Positions 2,754 to 40,673 of a stretch of 56,793 nt of DNA are shown here, in pieces. The stretch is taken from IMG/VR virus record IMGVR_UViG_3300048839_000639, positions 1 to 56,793 of that record, one strand, 5' to 3'. A model generated the notes under the pieces. That model worked only from the letters and a program-made list of their open reading frames with translations, was not told where the DNA came from and ran no database searches. Position 1 is the first letter of the stretch. Each line of letters opens with the position of its first letter. The stretch comes from a virus. Lineage: Duplodnaviria > Caudoviricetes. The translations under genes and the position numbers were made by a program.

Positions 2754-2912
2754 ATGGCGAAGGAACAAACGTCTTACCGTATCAGCGTAGTCGCAAAGCA
2801 TCTTCTCGCGCTTCTATCCGCAAAACTCGGCCTCAGTCAAACCGCTGTCATTGAACTGGCAATTAGGCGGCTTGCTGATGCCGAGGGCGTTAAAGTGGAA
2901 GGTAGTAAATGA
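2754..2912 (+). CDS. Ribbon-helix-helix (CopG-like) protein, 52 aa; not in ORF track
   Basis: MAKEQTSYRISVVAKHLLALLSAKLGLSQTAVIELAIRRLADAEG shows beta-helix-GLSQ-helix pattern; ATGA overlap with the next gene. Confidence 0.75.
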   Translation: MAKEQTSYRISVVAKHLLALLSAKLGLSQTAVIELAIRRLADAEGVKVEGSK

Positions 2913-3391
2913 CGGGCTACGTTTATTTCATCAGTGACGGGGTGGCAGTGAAGATTGGCATTGCCAGATTAGTAGGCGCTCGATTGCGTGACTTACAGAC
3001 TGGCAACACTAAACAACTGTCGGTTTTACACACCATAGAAACCAATGAGCCCCGCAAGGTTGAAGGCTGGCTGCACTGGAAGTATTCAGACCGTCGCATT
3101 GTGGGGGAGTGGTTTGCCTTGACTGCGAGCGACATTGATGATGTGAAAGCCATGAACCTGTCGCAGGGTTTGCCTGATAAAAAGATGGTGGCTGATGGAA
3201 TGGGCAAAGGCTTTACATTCGAGCAGGTGCTTTCATTCCTTGAGTCTGCCGTGTGGCACTGTCAACAGAATGGCATTGATGTGAAATTGATTAATAAGCC
3301 GGACGCCCTATGGCTAAAAGTTGATGGGGCAGAACTGACGGTAAATGGAATCCTTGAAGTTGAGCGGCCCGCCCGGCAGGTGACACCATGA
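2909..3391 (+). CDS. GIY-YIG (T5orf172/MUG113-like) nuclease-domain protein
   Basis: GYVYFI...VKIG...RLRDLQTGN...E..LH...GEWF motifs; lower GC than flanks. Confidence 0.85.
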   Translation: MTGYVYFISDGVAVKIGIARLVGARLRDLQTGNTKQLSVLHTIETNEPRKVEGWLHWKYSDRRIVGEWFALTASDIDDVKAMNLSQGLPDKKMVADGMGKGFTFEQVLSFLESAVWHCQQNGIDVKLINKPDALWLKVDGAELTVNGILEVERPARQVTP

Positions 3392-4020: not shown

Positions 4021-4347
4021 TTGGTGTGCCGGCTGTGGATTTTTGGGGACACACAGCCGGCAACCGAAAAATTGACTGTGGGGCAAAGCACAGCAGAAAC
4101 CGCGCACCCTCGTGCGGCTGGACCAGCCGCAGGATTCACACCCGACCCCGACGCGACACCACAAACGCCCTTTGAGGCGGAGCTGTTGCGCAATCTCCTC
4201 AGATTCATTCGGGCGCTCGATCAAAAACACAACATCGTCTTACAGCGCGGCATGTGGGTGGCCGTGCGCGCTTCACCGCGCGGCAGCGCAGGGCCGGACG
4301 CAAAACTGCTTGAGCTTGACAGCCGCATATTCAACAACGAATCATGA
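4021..4347 (+). CDS. Hypothetical protein (start uncertain)
   Basis: ORF whose stop overlaps the phosphoesterase ATG. Confidence 0.45.
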   Translation: MVCRLWIFGDTQPATEKLTVGQSTAETAHPRAAGPAAGFTPDPDATPQTPFEAELLRNLLRFIRALDQKHNIVLQRGMWVAVRASPRGSAGPDAKLLELDSRIFNNES

Positions 4348-5630
4348 GCGGCAAACTATCGGATTACTGGATTGAAAAAGAGCCGGTATTGGTAGCAGAA
4401 GCACAAAATAGAATCGTGAACGGCAAGATGCCCTTCGGCGGATGGAACGAGATTGCTTCCATCGTAGGCCGGCCAGCATCGCAGTGTCAGCAGCAGTATC
4501 AACGCGCCGTCCAGTCGGGCAGGGCCGGCCGCGAGGACACCGCAGAGCCGGCCAGAGACCCCGTTGCAGAAGAAACAGAGCGGCGCGACCGCATGCGCCG
4601 GCTGCGCGAGGAACAAGAGTTACTTAAGGCCGTGGCCGGCGAGAAGTCCTTGCGCGCCATGCTGGACGCACTGGCCGAGAAGGCCGCTGCGCGTTTCACG
4701 GCGCCGCCACCCTACAGAGCGCCCAAGCCCACCAAACGCACCACGCGAGAAAGCATGGTCATGTTGCTGAGTGACTGGCACAGCGCCGAAGTCATCTCCA
4801 AAGAAGGCACCCGCGGCCACAATGAATACAACGCCTTGATTACATCGCAGCGCGCGCGGCGGGTGACCGACGGCGCAATCGGCATCAAGTCAAAACTTGA
4901 GGCCGGCGGCTGGCACTTCGATGAGATGGTCGTCGCGCTCAATGGCGACTTCGTTCCTGGCACGATCCACGAGATTGAGAAGTTCACCGATGCGGCCAAT
5001 GTGGTGGTCAATGTGCACGGCACCGCGTGGATTCTGGCGCAAGCCCTGCGCGACCTGGCCGGCGTGTATCCAACACTGCGCGTTTATTGCTTGAGCGGCA
5101 ATCATGGCCGGCTGCCCGATGCACGCCGGATGCAGCAGAAGGAGCCGCTGCGCAACTGGGACACGCTCGTGTATCTCTACGCAAGGGCGTTTCTGTCGAA
5201 TGTGCCAAACATCGAATGGCACATCCCCAACGCCTACAGCGTCCTGTTTGACGTGAAGGGCTTCACGTTTGCGCAGACGCATGGACACGACATCAAGGGC
5301 TGGGCCGGCATCCCGTTTTACGGCATCCAGCGATCCACGCGCAACCAGAACGCGCTTGAAGCGGCGCGCCGGCGCACCATCAACTATTGGCTGCTGTCGC
5401 ACTTTCACACGCAATCCAGTCTGCCGCAGGCGGCCGGTGAGGTGTTTGTGAACGGCAGTCTGTGCGGCGGCACGGAATACACGGTGAACGGCCTGGGCGC
5501 GGCAGACCCGCCCAACCAGCTCATGTTTGGCGTGCATGCCGAGCACGGCGTGACGCATCGATGGCCGCTGTATGCATCGGCTGAGGCGGATGCGCCGAGC
5601 TACGACATGGGCGGGTGGGTGATCGGGTGA
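4344..5630 (+). CDS. Calcineurin-like metallophosphoesterase with N-terminal HTH/coiled coil
   Basis: SDWH, NGDF, SGNHG, THGH and SHFH motifs in canonical order; WNEIASIVGR HTH-like segment. Confidence 0.85.
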   Translation: MSGKLSDYWIEKEPVLVAEAQNRIVNGKMPFGGWNEIASIVGRPASQCQQQYQRAVQSGRAGREDTAEPARDPVAEETERRDRMRRLREEQELLKAVAGEKSLRAMLDALAEKAAARFTAPPPYRAPKPTKRTTRESMVMLLSDWHSAEVISKEGTRGHNEYNALITSQRARRVTDGAIGIKSKLEAGGWHFDEMVVALNGDFVPGTIHEIEKFTDAANVVVNVHGTAWILAQALRDLAGVYPTLRVYCLSGNHGRLPDARRMQQKEPLRNWDTLVYLYARAFLSNVPNIEWHIPNAYSVLFDVKGFTFAQTHGHDIKGWAGIPFYGIQRSTRNQNALEAARRRTINYWLLSHFHTQSSLPQAAGEVFVNGSLCGGTEYTVNGLGAADPPNQLMFGVHAEHGVTHRWPLYASAEADAPSYDMGGWVIG

Positions 5631-5633
5631 CAA

Positions 5634-5671
5634 CAAAAAAGCGCGGCACCTGTGAGCGTGCCGCACTTTTT
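5634..5671. terminator. Bidirectional terminator between convergent genes
   Basis: AAAAAA-GCGCGGCAC...GTGCCGCAC-TTTTT. Confidence 0.8.
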
Positions 5672-5682
5672 GCTACTGTGCT

Positions 5683-6114
5683 TTACCGCAGTGCCTCCAT
5701 CGGCGCTAGATTTTGCTCGCCCTTGCCAACGCGATTCCACCAGCGTTCTGCCGCGTCCACCAGCGTAAGCTTGTCGGTATATGACAGCGCGGCGAGTTTG
5801 CGCACCAGCGCCGGCCCGTCAACTTTCCATTTTTGGTCGAGGTGATTGAGCGAGATGGCGTCGCTGATTTCAGCGTCAATGAAGATGAGCGCGTGCTCGT
5901 CAAAAAATCCGGTGCCGTTCAGCGCATCCAGAATCAGCGAGATTTCGCCCTCGCTGAATTGCTCGCGCAGGCGCCGGCGTGCGACGGCCAGTACGTAGAG
6001 ATACCGCGACAGCATTTTGCTGATGGTGCCGCTGCGGTTTTCGCCGGCGTTGCGTAGCTCAATCTCGGCGGTGAGTTCGGGTTGCAGGGAGATGGGGAAT
6101 TTGTCGGCTGGCAT
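5683..6114 (-). CDS. RHH-like regulator with helical C-terminal domain
   Basis: KFPISLQPEL...NRSGTISKMLSRY resembles an RHH fold; last gene of the leftward operon. Confidence 0.6.
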   Translation of the reverse strand: MPADKFPISLQPELTAEIELRNAGENRSGTISKMLSRYLYVLAVARRRLREQFSEGEISLILDALNGTGFFDEHALIFIDAEISDAISLNHLDQKWKVDGPALVRKLAALSYTDKLTLVDAAERWWNRVGKGEQNLAPMEALR

Positions 6115-6117
6115 GGG

Positions 6118-6333
6118 TTAATCCTTGATCCAGTCCCACAGCCGCTGTAACAGCGTGCGGGGCCGGCGATGCAGGTTGAGTCGCTTTGCCGCTTCTTGCA
6201 CGCTCAGCACATGCATGTGCGGCTTGATCTTCGTCGGGTCGATGAGCGTGACGCGCTGGCCGCGCAGGATGGCTACCGCGCGGCCGGTCTCGATCAACGT
6301 CAGCAGGTCTTCGTCAAACTCCTCGCGGTTCAT
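6118..6333 (-). CDS. Hypothetical protein
   Basis: ATGA-coupled to the upstream gene. Confidence 0.65.
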   Translation of the reverse strand: MNREEFDEDLLTLIETGRAVAILRGQRVTLIDPTKIKPHMHVLSVQEAAKRLNLHRRPRTLLQRLWDWIKD

Positions 6334-6656
6334 GCGCTGTATTCCACAGCGCAGTATTCATAGTCGCTGCGCTGCGGCACGTAGTTTTTGTCAGCTTTGC
6401 GCTTGGGGTCAACCAGGCGGAAGTTCAGCCGGCACACCAGCATCGTGTCGCCGCTGGCGAGCGTCGTCTCGGCGCGGCTCACCGGCACGTGCACACCAGC
6501 GATCTGCTGGATGTGCGTCGCAGTGGCTTCGTAGCCGACGAATGACTGAAACGGCGCGGCGCGCAGGCGCTCTGCAAATTCGGACTCGGTGAGCATCGTC
6601 ATGCGATAGGTGCCGGCCTGCGGCATCATCGCGGAGTTCATGAGTTTTGTGGTCAT
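6330..6656 (-). CDS. DUF1874 / AcrIII-1 (STIV B116, YddF)-like ring-nuclease fold protein, variant
   Basis: LMNS..P, FQSFVGYEATA (cf. F.SAIGH..TA), VPVSR, L.SGD.MLV.RL..RL match the family pattern; 108 aa; good SD. Confidence 0.8.
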   Translation of the reverse strand: MTTKLMNSAMMPQAGTYRMTMLTESEFAERLRAAPFQSFVGYEATATHIQQIAGVHVPVSRAETTLASGDTMLVCRLNFRLVDPKRKADKNYVPQRSDYEYCAVEYSA

Positions 6657-6865
6657 TCGTGGTTGATCTCCTCGACAGCGGCTTCCGGAGTCGTGTGGAA
6701 TCCGCTGGTGTAGTGGCCGGCGGCGGTATACATCACCGCGCCGGCGGCGTCACGGTGGGCAAACACATCCACCTGTGCACCGCAGCAGTCATAGGTGACT
6801 GCGACGCGCAGTGTGTCAGAGTTTGCTCGGTCAAAGTCTTGCGGGGTGTGCGGTTTGATTTTCAT
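6653..6865 (-). CDS. Hypothetical protein
   Basis: MKIKPHT...; stop overlaps the DUF1874 start. Confidence 0.55.
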   Translation of the reverse strand: MKIKPHTPQDFDRANSDTLRVAVTYDCCGAQVDVFAHRDAAGAVMYTAAGHYTSGFHTTPEAAVEEINHE

Positions 6866-6871
6866 GGGAAA

Positions 6872-7003
6872 CAAAAAACGGCGAACACAAATTGATGTGT
6901 TCGCCGGCAGTCGCGCTCTTTCAGAATTTCTTTTCGCCACTAAGGGCAATTCTGCAAAAGTTGCAGTCCCCTCGTGCGGGGTTGGCTGCGCGACTGCCGG
7001 CGA
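6872..7003 (-). promoter_or_regulatory. Structured RNA element with overlapping terminator (attenuator-like)
   Basis: 16-bp perfect inverted repeat 6901-6916/6988-7003 enclosing two hairpins; 11-bp terminator stem 6879-6906 plus U6 shares 6 nt with it. Confidence 0.7.
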
Positions 7004-7005
7004 GT

Positions 7006-7581
7006 CTACATCGTCTCCACCTCGGCGTCAATCACGACGCCATCTTCGTCGCGGTATGTGCCCACGCGCCGACCGCGCAGGTATTCAACCTCGGCCATTC
7101 CGCTTTCGCTGAGATACAGCGGGGCGGCTTCCTCGCCCATGCGCAGGTAGCCATACGCTGCCTCGCTCCACTCGTCGGGGAGCGTGGGCGTGATGTCGCG
7201 GTCGTGGTCGCCGCGCTCCACCTTCTCCGCGTGCTGACACGCGGGGACGGTGATTGACATGTGCAGCATCGGCATCGGGATGCAGGTGCGCGCGTCGAAC
7301 GAGCGGATGTTGAGCAGGTCGTAGTAGCCAACCTCGCCTGAGTCGGCGTCGTAAAACATAGACTCAAGGCCGGCGTCAACCTCGACAAAAAAGAACGTCT
7401 GAAACGTCTGCGCGCTCAAGTCGCGTTTGTTGCGCGTGATGATGTGCAGCGCGGCGACGAAAAACAAATTCGCGCTGTAGTAATCGCCGGCGTTCTTTGC
7501 GCGCTCGATCAACTCGATGAGTGCGTGAATTTCGGCGAAAACGTCGGGCTTGGTCGGCATGTTCATGGCTTTTGCTGTCAT
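7006..7581 (-). CDS. Hypothetical acidic protein (start 7581 or 7566)
   Basis: Long ORF in operon orientation. Confidence 0.65.
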   Translation of the reverse strand: MTAKAMNMPTKPDVFAEIHALIELIERAKNAGDYYSANLFFVAALHIITRNKRDLSAQTFQTFFFVEVDAGLESMFYDADSGEVGYYDLLNIRSFDARTCIPMPMLHMSITVPACQHAEKVERGDHDRDITPTLPDEWSEAAYGYLRMGEEAAPLYLSESGMAEVEYLRGRRVGTYRDEDGVVIDAEVETM

Positions 7582-7634
7582 CCCCTCTCGCGGGGATATT
7601 TCATCGCCGCGAGAGGGGAGAGTGTGTTGATGGA

Positions 7635-8627
7635 TTAGAGCGCCCTCACAAGCCACTGCATGTATTCGGGCGAGTCAACAGCCACGGCTTCGCACGGCTC
7701 GATTTCTTCCTCGTAGCCCTCATCAGTCGGGCTGTCGCTGGCGGCCTTGACCAGCCAGACGATTTTGACGCGATCCGGTTCCAGGTTCGGATGCGCGAGG
7801 AGCACCGCGTCGCGCTCGTTGAGGGCTTCGATGGAAGGGCAGACGCGGTCTTTCCATTCGGCGGCATCCTCGTAGTCGAGGACGTAGCCAGGAAACTCGG
7901 CGGCGGCGCGCTCAATGAAATACAGCCGTCCGCACTCGTGGCCGGCGGCCATGCCACGGCGCAGGCGTTCGCTGCCGTGCTCGTTTGCCCACGCGATACG
8001 CGCATCGCGTGCAGCTTGCTTCGCCGCTTCCTTCTCGGCGGCTTCCGCCGCCTTGCGCGCTTCGGCCTCGGCCTTGAAAGCGGGTTGCAGTGCGAGGTAT
8101 TCAGCGCGCGCGGCTTCATAAGCGCGCAGGTCGATTTCCGCGCCGGCCTCGCGCGCGTTCGCCATCTGCCGGTCAATGTTGCCGCCGGTGTAGGTCGCGC
8201 TGCGCGCCTCGATCAACGCGCGGTAGTTGGCCGCGATGCCGTCAATGTGAGCCTGCGCACTCACGCGCACCTGCTCGCGGTGCAGCGCGGCGAGGCGGTC
8301 GAACTCGGCCTGATGCATCTCGCGCGATGCGAGTGCATTGCCGGCGCGCGCGATCCAGTCAGCGATGCTTGGCAGCGTCTCAAACTCGTCAGCTCGCTCG
8401 GTGATCCACTGAGGCGCGCCAGTGGTGCTATACATCTGCCGCGCGCCAGTGGTGCGCGCCGGCATCTCATAGCACTCGTTTTTCACACAGCGCACGAGCA
8501 CCGCGCGCTGCTCAGGGGTGAGCAACACGGGATCGAACTCAATGCGCTCAGTGCGCGCGAGTTGCTTGCCGGTGGCGATGAAATGAGCACTAATCAGTTT
8601 CTGCGTCGGGTGAAATTCTGCGAACAT
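7635..8627 (-). CDS. Hypothetical protein with Ala/Glu coiled coil
   Basis: CAGGAG SD before MFAEF; 330 aa. Confidence 0.75.
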   Translation of the reverse strand: MFAEFHPTQKLISAHFIATGKQLARTERIEFDPVLLTPEQRAVLVRCVKNECYEMPARTTGARQMYSTTGAPQWITERADEFETLPSIADWIARAGNALASREMHQAEFDRLAALHREQVRVSAQAHIDGIAANYRALIEARSATYTGGNIDRQMANAREAGAEIDLRAYEAARAEYLALQPAFKAEAEARKAAEAAEKEAAKQAARDARIAWANEHGSERLRRGMAAGHECGRLYFIERAAAEFPGYVLDYEDAAEWKDRVCPSIEALNERDAVLLAHPNLEPDRVKIVWLVKAASDSPTDEGYEEEIEPCEAVAVDSPEYMQWLVRAL

Positions 8628-8740
8628 TGGTTTCTCCTGCCGGCACCTGCCGGCTGAATCAAATCTGATGTGCACATGCTCATCAGTCCCGCTGCGCGGG
8701 AGACACCCCCACCGCGAGGGTGGGGATGTTTCGCTGTGCA

Positions 8741-9067
8741 CTATCGGATGATCGTGAGGCCGCCCTGACCGTGGCTGCGCTTTGCGCCGGTGCGCCCCAC
8801 GTAGATTTCGAACGCGCCATTCGCCCTGCGGTTGGCTTCCGCGTAGGTGATCTGCGCATTACCGAAATAGCAGTTGGCGACAAACCCATCGCGGCTATAG
8901 CGGCGGATGCGGTCAGCAGTGGGGTTTTCGTCGATTGCCGCAAGGAGCTTGTCGATGTCGCTGTTGTAAAGCACGCGCGTGCGTGCGCGGCCCTCGATGG
9001 CATCAGCGGCATTGCGAAGGGTGGTCTTGATGTCGGACTGGTCGGTATTCGGAGTGTAGGTAATCAT
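8741..9067 (-). CDS. Hypothetical protein, first gene of the leftward operon
   Basis: GAGG SD; downstream of a strong promoter. Confidence 0.75.
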   Translation of the reverse strand: MITYTPNTDQSDIKTTLRNAADAIEGRARTRVLYNSDIDKLLAAIDENPTADRIRRYSRDGFVANCYFGNAQITYAEANRRANGAFEIYVGRTGAKRSHGQGGLTIIR

Positions 9068-9132
9068 TTGTCGTTTCCTCGTTCACTTGAACTTTGGTAG
9101 CTCGCACACTTGTGCTTGCCGTCGATAGATGT

Positions 9133-9495: not shown

Positions 9496-9578
9496 TATAA
9501 TGCCCACAACGAAATAGCCAGCCAGCGATTACGCGGCGGCAATCTATCTCCGATAGGTTGCCGCCGCGTTTGCGTTTT
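9496..9578 (+). promoter_or_regulatory. -10 box followed by long leader hairpin and T-rich tract
   Basis: TATAAT at 9496; hairpin 9531-9569 (ACGCGGCGGCAATCTATC/GATAGGTTGCCGCCGCGT). Confidence 0.55.
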
Positions 9579-15461: not shown

Positions 15462-15534
<73 letters not shown>

Positions 15535-39194: not shown

Positions 39195-40673
39195 TTATCG
39201 CGCAGCCTGCACCAGCTCTTTGTAGGCGGCTTTCACGCGCCACTCGACGATGGCGCGCTCGTCAATGTCCACCACGACGCCGGCGAGAATGGTGAGAAGC
39301 GCGTTGTTGCGCTCTTTGGTGGACATCTCGGCCCACTGGCCGGCGAAGTCGATCAGGCTTTCGGCGGCCTGCGCAATGCTTGGGGCCGGCTGCGCCTCAA
39401 GATCGGCCATGTCGCGTTTGATGCGCGCCAGCTCGCGCAGGTAATCCGCCTCGGCCATGCCGCCGGCTTGAAACATGGTGCCCAGCCGCTTCATCTCGCC
39501 GCGCAGGTTGGCGGCCATCTGCGCGCGCTCGTCCTGCACGCTGACCGACTGCGACAGTTCGATTGCCTCGTCGATCACGTCCTCGGTGAGCTTGAGCGAG
39601 GCGATGAATTCATCCACCTGCGCCACCAGCACGCTTTCAGCCAGGTAGTGACGTTTGGCGGGGCAGGGGATGCCGCGTTCGTGGCTGCGGCAGATGTAAT
39701 AGGGTGACTCATGCCCCGATCCACCGGCCATGCCGCACGTCATGCGCTTGTCGCAGCCGGCGCACACGGCAAGGTCTTGCAGCAGGTATTGATGATGCGG
39801 CAGCGCAGCGCGGCCCGGTCGGGAACGGCCATGTGTGCGCATGGCGACCTGCAAGCGTTCGTGTTCGGCCCAGCTCATCAGCGGCTGGTGTGTGCCGTCA
39901 AAAAGCAGCGTCTCGTTCTTGCTGCGGCGTTTGGGCTTGCCGTCCGGCCCTTTGCCGGCCATGCCGCGATACACAATCTTGCCGGCGTAGAACGGATTGC
40001 GCAGCATCCCCAGCACGGTGTCCTTGCTGAAAGCGCGATTGTCGCGGGTGAGAATGCCGCGCGCCCTGAGTTCTTTGGCAATGTCGCCGGCTGAATACGT
40101 GCCGGTGAGCATCCTGTCCACCATCTCGCGCCAGATGGTGAATCGCGGTTCATCCGGCACATCCTCGCCGGCTTCGCGCTTGTAGCCGAACGGTGGGCGG
40201 GTGGCGTTCGACTTGCGCCGTGTGATCGCCTTCGACTTCTTGCGGCGCGCGATGTCCTCACTCAGGCGCTCGCGCTCGTGGGCGCCGATGACAATGCCGA
40301 GATTGCGCACCAGCCGGCCGCCGGCGCTGCGGTCGTGCTGCTGTGTGACGCTGATGACCGGCACACCGAGCCGGTCAAGCTCCTCAAGGATTGAAATGTC
40401 GGCGGCCGCGCGGCTGAATCGGTTGTAATCGTAGACGAGGATCGCCTGCCACCGCTGCCGCCCAGAACGGGCCATGAGCAGGAGGCGCTGAAACTGCTTG
40501 CGCTCGTGGGTGCCTCCGCTGATGGCCTCGTCCTTGAACGTCTCGATCACCGCCATGCCGTGCTCGGCGGCGTAGCGTGCAATGGTGTCGGCCTGTGAGG
40601 CGACGGTGTGGCCGTCGCGCTGCATCTCGCTTGAGTAGCGGATGTATTGCGCGGCGGGGATGAGGTCAGTCAT
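39195..40673 (-). CDS. int: Large serine recombinase (integrase)
   Basis: YIRYSS catalytic motif, SG...R, RFSR, PPFGY, NPFYAG, CAGC...C...C zinc ribbon and coiled coil. Confidence 0.95.
   Translation of the reverse strand: MTDLIPAAQYIRYSSEMQRDGHTVASQADTIARYAAEHGMAVIETFKDEAISGGTHERKQFQRLLLMARSGRQRWQAILVYDYNRFSRAAADISILEELDRLGVPVISVTQQHDRSAGGRLVRNLGIVIGAHERERLSEDIARRKKSKAITRRKSNATRPPFGYKREAGEDVPDEPRFTIWREMVDRMLTGTYSAGDIAKELRARGILTRDNRAFSKDTVLGMLRNPFYAGKIVYRGMAGKGPDGKPKRRSKNETLLFDGTHQPLMSWAEHERLQVAMRTHGRSRPGRAALPHHQYLLQDLAVCAGCDKRMTCGMAGGSGHESPYYICRSHERGIPCPAKRHYLAESVLVAQVDEFIASLKLTEDVIDEAIELSQSVSVQDERAQMAANLRGEMKRLGTMFQAGGMAEADYLRELARIKRDMADLEAQPAPSIAQAAESLIDFAGQWAEMSTKERNNALLTILAGVVVDIDERAIVEWRVKAAYKELVQAAR

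Follow-up and report, generated by a model that had tools for sequence, protein, structure and literature searches.

The stretch of DNA analysed here, referred to as the window, is 56,793 nucleotides (nt) long and makes up the linear IMG/VR virus record IMGVR_UViG_3300048839_000639 (Duplodnaviria; Caudoviricetes), for which CheckV gives a completeness of 64%. The record is that of a temperate siphovirus, because it encodes a large terminase, a portal, a head-morphogenesis protein, a tape measure and a serine integrase. Its minus strand carries at 6330-6656 the gene under study, which codes for a 108-aa protein of the DUF1874 family (AcrIII-1/Crn2 fold, Tyr/Lys type) and was delineated from the list of open reading frames (ORFs), the Pfam profile PF08960 and an AlphaFold2 model. 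The gene stands second in a compact minus-strand cassette of four (6868-5683), and a putative Shine-Dalgarno motif read from the letters, GAGGAG (6668-6673, minus strand), lies 11 nt 5' of its ATG. The ORF is real, and its motifs read FQSFVGYEATA and FRLVDPKRK as in an initial annotation of this DNA, which had taken the product for an AcrIII-1-like protein with Tyr in place of the catalytic His.

The tyrosine concerned, Tyr42, is encoded by TAC at window positions 6533-6531 (minus strand, as are the codons that follow), which is a single base change from a His codon, and occupies the position of His47 in SIRV1 gp29 and His495 in Marinitoga Crn2. Lys87 (AAA, 6396-6398) is a clade-specific lysine of the lid and lies 7 residues past Arg80. 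The lid motif R80-L-V-D83-P84 is encoded at 6405-6419, where Arg80 corresponds to the locking arginine (Arg85/Arg533), Asp83 to Glu88/Glu536 and Pro84 to a Gly. Alignments place Arg61 (6474-6476) at Arg66 of gp29 and Arg514 of Crn2, and Asn7-Ser8 (6633-6638) at Asn451-Ser452 of Crn2, the Asn also matching Asn8 of gp29.

Profile searches and the predicted structure agree that the protein is a true member of the alpha/beta DUF1874/AcrIII-1 fold. The DUF1874 profile match named as a check in the initial annotation was obtained with PF08960 (DUF1874/STIV_B116-like) at 41.4 bits against a cut-off of 26 (E 1.6e-10, residues 5-81), and a six-frame search of the record against the same profile scored 40.8 bits. 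The protein also matched phrog_5063, which carries no assigned function, and no NCBIfam model matched it. Among solved structures the best sequence match was AFV3-109 (2j6b), with E 2e-6 by phmmer from the single sequence and 1.4e-16 from the profile, and the phmmer alignment places GY of the phage protein on GH of AFV3-109. The AlphaFold2 model, built with 114 relatives, had a pLDDT of 94.2 and a pTM of 0.86, and the lid block 81-90 was the sole dip in pLDDT (to 78). Structural similarity to DUF1874, on which the earlier proposal depended, was found by both comparison methods. Foldseek returned 16 PDB matches at E <= 0.001, all of them DUF1874 structures (TMq 0.70-0.81, with 0.76-0.81 to 8y7g, 2j6b and 6scf), and every row above the first unrelated one was of DUF1874 type. 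VIA-align gave Z 13-16 to 6scf, 2j6b, 8y7g, 2x4i and 2j85 against Z 3.1 for the next unrelated entry; the individual values were 16.0 for the cA4-bound (cyclic tetra-adenylate) AcrIII-1 6scf_A (root-mean-square deviation 1.9 A over 106 residues), 15.9 for 2j6b and 15.4 for the cA4-bound Csx1-Crn2 8y7g_B.

The protein is predicted to form a homodimer with its ligand pocket at the interface. The two-copy complex prediction scored 0.73 while the best of 3 controls scored 0.01, and the score mark applied is reached by 20/30 proteins solved as same-chain pairs and by 1/23 single chains. Contact agreement between the runs was 100% and the partner pLDDT was at least 86. The predicted interface is formed by residues 8-21, 63, 80, 102 and 104 and thus includes R80. 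Like dimers have already been solved, so that passing the mark speaks for likeness, maybe for memory of the predictor, and is not proof.

The cleavage chemistry of the family has been described for two His-bearing members. In AcrIII-1 (10.1101/778746) the acid that drives cA4 cleavage is His47, a general acid described as "absolutely conserved"; the H47A change lowers catalytic power more than 2500-fold, and the cA4 contacts listed for gp29 are N8, S11, N13, S49, T50, R66, Q81 and R85. In the Crn2 domain (PMC11317161), cA4 is contacted by N451, S452, R514, K529 and L530, H495 serves as the acid and is stabilised by E536 (equivalent to E88), Arg514 (corresponding to Arg66) stabilises the scissile phosphate, and the H495A variant binds cA4 at a dissociation constant of ~62 nM without cleaving it. 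The role that the initial annotation ascribed to the AcrIII-1 His in cA4 cleavage is documented in both sources (10.1101/778746; PMC11317161).

The residues were mapped by profile alignment to the Crn2 chain, with the numbering checked against the published description (PMC11317161). All positions aligned with the named Crn2 contacts were kept, namely N451 as N7, S452 as S8, R514 as R61, K529 as R76 (K or R in the clade) and L530 as L77, and R533 was likewise kept as R80. Both residues of the catalytic pair were replaced, H495 by Y42 and E536 by D83, and G537 was replaced by P84. Several alignments agree on Tyr at the catalytic His position. The two Arg positions that had been reported as retained are indeed present (R61 and R80), and the reading of RLVDP against RLPEG is borne out by AFV6 ORF109, which has RLPEG. 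Lys87 has no counterpart in the His forms, whose lids read RLEEG, RLPEG, RLLEG, RAPEG or RFEEA. The replacement of the pair is coordinated, with His/Glu giving way to Tyr and a new lid Lys. The conserved Crn2-contact positions argue, at the level of the alignment, for a cA4-like ligand over cA3 (cyclic tri-adenylate), cA6 (cyclic hexa-adenylate) or the signals of cyclic-oligonucleotide-based anti-phage signalling systems (CBASS), and are not proof of it.

We determined how widely the tyrosine is held through a phmmer search over 1.84 billion representatives, which gave 465 matches at E <= 1e-3. In the best 150 of the 465 together with the close relatives, column 42 was Y in 151, H in 4, F in 1 and N in 1 of 157 rows; with the relatives from a profile search added, it was Y in 244, H in 4, F in 1 and N in 1 of 250. 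All 7 full-length close relatives (62-92% identity) carry GY; the remaining row of the eight, P0008, is a fragment unaligned over its N-terminal half, the Tyr site included, and supplies the only Phe of the column. This 96-aa sequence matches the phage protein at 79% identity over its C-terminal 68 residues, is unrelated to it over the N-terminal 28 and is probably a frameshifted or chimeric gene call. The pocket and lid positions are near-invariant across the 250 rows (R80 248, L77 243, R61 241, N7 238, K87 236), as are G41 (248), G15, Y17 and S38 (239 each), P12 (234), D70 (223) and D98 (222), and position 76 is K or R in 233. Three residues after R80, the 242 Tyr rows have D in 102, N in 61 and E in only 2, and P follows at the fourth residue in 158. 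No conserved substitute His was found in the 250 rows, the highest counts being 55 at position 48 and 32 at position 4. His48 was considered as a substitute catalytic residue and rejected, with His there in just 55/250.

An independent check was made on metagenome loci selected for carrying L[MV]NSAMMP, an N-terminal peptide outside the Tyr site. The scan gave 47 loci, some of them duplicate viral loci, and one that covered residues 5-27 only was dropped. Tyr stood at the site in 46/46, as GY in 41, AY in 4 and SY in 1. The GY reading is thus a clade trait and, judged from the aligned sequences, is explained neither by chance nor by a sequencing lesion.

A quick maximum-likelihood tree of 83 rows and 115 columns was built from 70 of the 200-odd short relatives, picked at random, and 12 His-type rows. 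It separates 8 canonical His proteins (SIRV1 gp29, AFV6, Fnu1 and five IMG/VR proteins) from a 75-row clade, with SH-aLRT support of 99 on both sides. The initial annotation had raised the question whether GY defines a clade, and the column counts, the metagenome loci and this split answer it in the affirmative. The 75 rows comprise 71 Tyr and 4 His rows, the latter being P0127 and a trio fused to an XRE-type helix-turn-helix (HTH) domain; the lysine 7 residues past the lid Arg is kept by P0127 and lost in the trio. Two of the trio (P0103 and P0143, 184 aa) consist of an XRE/Cro-type HTH fused to a His-bearing DUF1874 domain, with both domains confirmed by Pfam, and the third (P0107, 173 aa) resembles them by eye but gave no HTH match in Pfam. 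The quick tree places all three within the Tyr clade. They have His and not Tyr, are without the lid Lys and look like ligand-sensing transcription regulators on the DUF1874 fold. No fused forms of 236-2000 aa were found by a clade profile search, which is weak evidence, and no second Pfam domain was found in ten long relatives. Counted as sequence clusters, the clade has at least 244 members, which come almost entirely from uncultured viruses and mobile elements.

Searches of deposited phages with the phage protein, P0086 and P0014 as queries matched only lipothrixviruses, Fusobacterium phages and Vibrio phage Rostov 7. The four matched records checked (Fnu1, AFV6, SIFV and Rostov 7) are of His type, as is SIRV1 gp29, and no Tyr-type member was seen among these four. 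The clade profile matched 7 distinct PDB sequences, and none of these has Tyr at the site either; all have His or an engineered Ala.

Among the characterised proteins, AcrIII-1 (SIRV1 gp29; 6SCF with cA4, 2X4I apo) is like the phage protein in Pfam family, fold, predicted dimer and in being virus-borne, and the Asn, Thr, Arg and lid Arg at its positions 8, 50, 66 and 85 are kept. It differs in that His47 corresponds to Tyr42 and Glu88 to Asp83, that Lys87 is new and that S11, N13 and S49 are not kept; identity between the two is 15-20% and the tree branch between their groups is supported at 99. AFV3-109 (2J6B) and its lipothrixvirus kin (AFV6 ORF109, SIFV0026) have the N-terminal LNSA-x-x-P in common with the phage protein, with Z 15.9 for the fold, but carry GH and R-L-[P/E]-E-G and belong to archaeal viruses. 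The Crn2 domain of Marinitoga Csx1-Crn2 (8Y6Z, 8Y7F, 8Y7G; TMq 0.78-0.81) aligns its contacts and lid Arg with conserved residues of the phage protein. Crn2, however, is cellular, is fused to a CARF-HEPN RNase and has H495 and E536, whereas the phage protein stands alone and has Tyr and Asp. The phage sponges Acb2, Acb4, Tad1 and Tad2, described in the literature as small, oligomeric and partner-free neutralisers of immune nucleotides, offer a functional analogy only; none of them was among the Foldseek or VIA-align matches listed, and absence from that list does not exclude a relation.

Because the fold, the predicted dimer and the full set of contact-aligned positions are retained, the protein is expected still to close over a cA4-like ring. 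We tentatively favour, at somewhat under even confidence, a dimeric cA4-type binder that still cleaves the ring, using Tyr and Lys. The interface pocket of the homodimer, under the mobile lid, would hold a cyclic oligoadenylate of two-fold symmetry (probably cA4), and the bound ring would thereby be removed from host immune signalling. Asn7 and Arg61 would hold the scissile phosphate, with the in-line 2'-OH geometry inherited from the fold, and Tyr42, tuned by the lid Lys87, would replace His47/Glu88 as proton donor. The Tyr hydroxyl appears to matter, because Tyr fills 244 of 250 rows and the sole Phe comes from a misaligned fragment, and His and Tyr look interchangeable in this scaffold because four His proteins nest in the Tyr clade. 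Tyr-Lys pairs in which Lys lowers the pKa of Tyr exist, and the proposed pair of the phage protein resembles these.

Several points weigh against cleavage by Tyr and Lys. Tyrosine is a weaker acid than histidine, and biochemistry on any Tyr-type member was not found in the literature. That the phage meets cA4 signalling in its host is an assumption, since its terminase relatives, at 52% identity at best, do not identify that host. In the neighbourhood sample, which comprised 300 ORFs from 53 related loci, none of CARF, HEPN, Cas10 and CD-NTase was seen among the best 25 of 50 and 25 of 26 neighbour families. The clade is rare in cellular genomes (2/401 Chloroflexota sampled), which leaves co-occurrence statistics little power. 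A Cas10-type match above the curated cut-off was present in 2/5 carrier genomes, both of them Chloroflexota. That makes 2/2 Chloroflexota carriers against a background of 94/401 (chance ~0.05), which would fit the cA4 reading, but one of the two matches spans the palm domain only. Even the canonical SIRV2 gp37 reportedly fails to act as an anti-CRISPR when the infection is a native one (10.1101/2023.01.10.523387). Lastly, the H47A and H495A variants bind cA4 tightly and barely cleave it (10.1101/778746; PMC11317161), and the same facts fit a sponge.

In such a sponge, which we regard as possible though doubtful, the dimer would close over cA4 or a similar ring stoichiometrically with very slow or no cleavage, and the Tyr42 hydroxyl and Lys87 would serve as extra contacts. 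Loss of the His alone yields a binder, as H47A and H495A keep nanomolar cA4 binding without cleavage, and the phage protein has its catalytic pair replaced with the contact-aligned positions kept. Sponges for immune nucleotides are an established phage strategy. Tyr and Lys are a typical nucleotide-clamping pair in phage sponges, and here they would be equally suited as added ligand clamps. On the other hand, the kept Asn7 and Arg61 and the in-line geometry of the fold make some turnover likely, His-bearing members nest within the Tyr clade, and a phage would spend less on an enzyme than on a binder that acts stoichiometrically. Alternatively, though this seems improbable to us, the fold and dimer might be tuned to another signal, to be cleaved or only bound, such as cA3, cA6, a 2'-5'-linked ring or a di- or trinucleotide of CBASS. 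The lid (81-97) is rebuilt relative to the His forms, with a D/N-P cap, Lys87 and a longer loop that reads N91-Y92-V93-P94 in close relatives, and the gp29 contacts S11, N13 and S49 have become Met10, Pro12 and Ala44. The phage has ~62% GC and its nearest terminases are in Rhizobium phages (52% identity at best); in hosts of this kind type III CRISPR is less common than CBASS. Every Crn2 cA4-contact position is nevertheless conserved, the N-terminal NS-x-x-MP motif is common to the phage protein and the cA4-cleaving Marinitoga Crn2, and superposition of the model on the cA4-closed state gives 1.9 A along the full chain.

A role unrelated to nucleotides, as a protein-protein inhibitor of a host factor or through DNA binding, appears least probable of all. 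SIRV2 gp37 is reported to bind a host lysine methyltransferase, but the methyltransferase contacts are conserved in only a few rudiviruses (10.1101/2023.01.10.523387). The SIFV and AFV homologues are labelled "DNA binding protein" in old lipothrixvirus annotations, and there were no immune genes among the neighbour families listed. Conservation in the Tyr clade, by contrast, sits at the pocket and lid positions N7, Y42, R61, R80 and K87 and not on a surface patch.

A further conjecture, possible but shakier than the cleavage by Tyr and Lys favoured above, is that DUF1874 proteins of the Tyr/Lys type neutralise signals for their viruses by a mechanism that sets them apart as a class. They could be natural high-affinity cA4 sponges evolved from a ring nuclease by a swap of the catalytic pair. 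In a bolder version, by analogy, they could open the ring through tyrosine, either with a Tyr-Lys acid pair or via a short-lived covalent phosphotyrosyl intermediate surrounded, as in type IB topoisomerases, by two Arg and a Lys. The textbook case of viral destruction of an immune second messenger is AcrIII-1, in which the catalytic His has been called absolutely conserved. Counts of viral ring nucleases based on hidden Markov models (HMMs) mix two chemistries, given a branch without either catalytic residue. If the distinct class holds true, a large family annotated as "AcrIII-1" in uncultured phages is mis-described. The proteins would be the first enzyme-derived sponge for a type III CRISPR signal if they are sponges, and a second solution to metal-free cleavage of an RNA ring if they are enzymes. 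No description of a Tyr-type member was found in full-text searches of the literature; the Extended Data alignment and tree of AcrIII-1 or an HMM survey (10.1101/2024.09.24.614671) might hold uncommented ones. The Tyr/Lys branch is large and apparently unstudied.

The Pfam tallies of the neighbours of related genes comprised AAA ATPases, integrases, a polymerase, a methylase, AbiEi and MoxR/VWA, which are ordinary families of phages and mobile elements. An all-against-all BLAST of the 300 neighbour ORFs and 8 window neighbours gave lineage-specific synteny only and nothing in common with the window. No partner gene is common to the 53 loci, which, together with the translationally coupled cassette of small genes in a temperate siphovirus, suits a stand-alone accessory or anti-defence gene. 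Three local arrangements were noted. On two near-identical contigs, one of them from a Caldisericaceae metagenome-assembled genome, translational coupling links the Tyr-type gene to that of a 502-aa protein (L003:305-1816, L040:804-2312; copies 98% identical). This protein shows a coiled coil and, at its C-terminus, a weak DUF2325 signal, and no CARF or HEPN was found in it by sequence or among Atlas look-alikes. In four Chloroflexota-type loci (L004, L041, L046, L047), a divergent 525-aa AbiEi-like gene, the Tyr-type gene and two genes of ~300 and ~570-590 aa without family match follow one another in this order. In five loci of one viral lineage (L008, L009, L010, L015, L020), the Tyr-type gene lies just 5' of a ~280-aa gene, with a ~470-aa gene also present in 4/5; AAA ATPase families matched five neighbour ORFs, perhaps those of ~280 aa.

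The genes flanking the Tyr-type gene in the window are packed closely around it. The upstream gene (6653-6868, minus strand) codes for 71 aa with no assigned function, and its TGA overlaps the ATG of the Tyr-type gene (ATGA); its start was set at ATG 6868 and not at TTG 6949, because the hairpin at 6906-6879 falls inside the longer frame. The downstream gene (6118-6333, minus strand), also of 71 aa, overlaps with its ATG the TGA of the Tyr-type gene (ATGA) and shows a faint excisionase-type HTH (TIGR01764, 16.5 bits, E 0.0081, below the cut-off of 28.8). The last gene of the cassette (5683-6114, minus strand) codes for 143 aa and has no family match. Apart from the sub-threshold HTH, none of the other six minus-strand genes at 9067-5683 matched Pfam, PHROGs or NCBIfam, and a DNA search of 5600-9100 against deposited phages gave no match.

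A promoter-like site, TTGACG-17-TAGACT (7003-7031, minus strand; 9/12, a consensus match only), lies upstream of the cassette, with 2 such sites found against 0.8 expected. A terminator-like hairpin of 11 pairs with a T-run (6879-6906, minus strand) lies between the upstream genes and the cassette and is weak alone, as 8 such hairpins were found against 4.7 expected. Further right, a very strong terminator-like hairpin (9531-9569, plus strand; 18 pairs, 11 of them G-C) is located just right of a divergent promoter-like site (9161-9133, minus strand), which could drive the leftward genes 9067-7006. To the left of the cassette, on the opposite strand, are a T5orf172/MUG113-domain (GIY-YIG-like) protein (2909-3391) and a phrog_284 exonuclease (4344-5630). 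The integrase that marks the phage as temperate is a large one of the serine recombinase type (39195-40673, minus strand; phrog_95, E 5e-86), and to its right lie clamp-loader-like and helicase genes on the minus strand. The phage also bears a tRNA-Val with the unusual anticodon AAC at 15462-15534 (plus strand).

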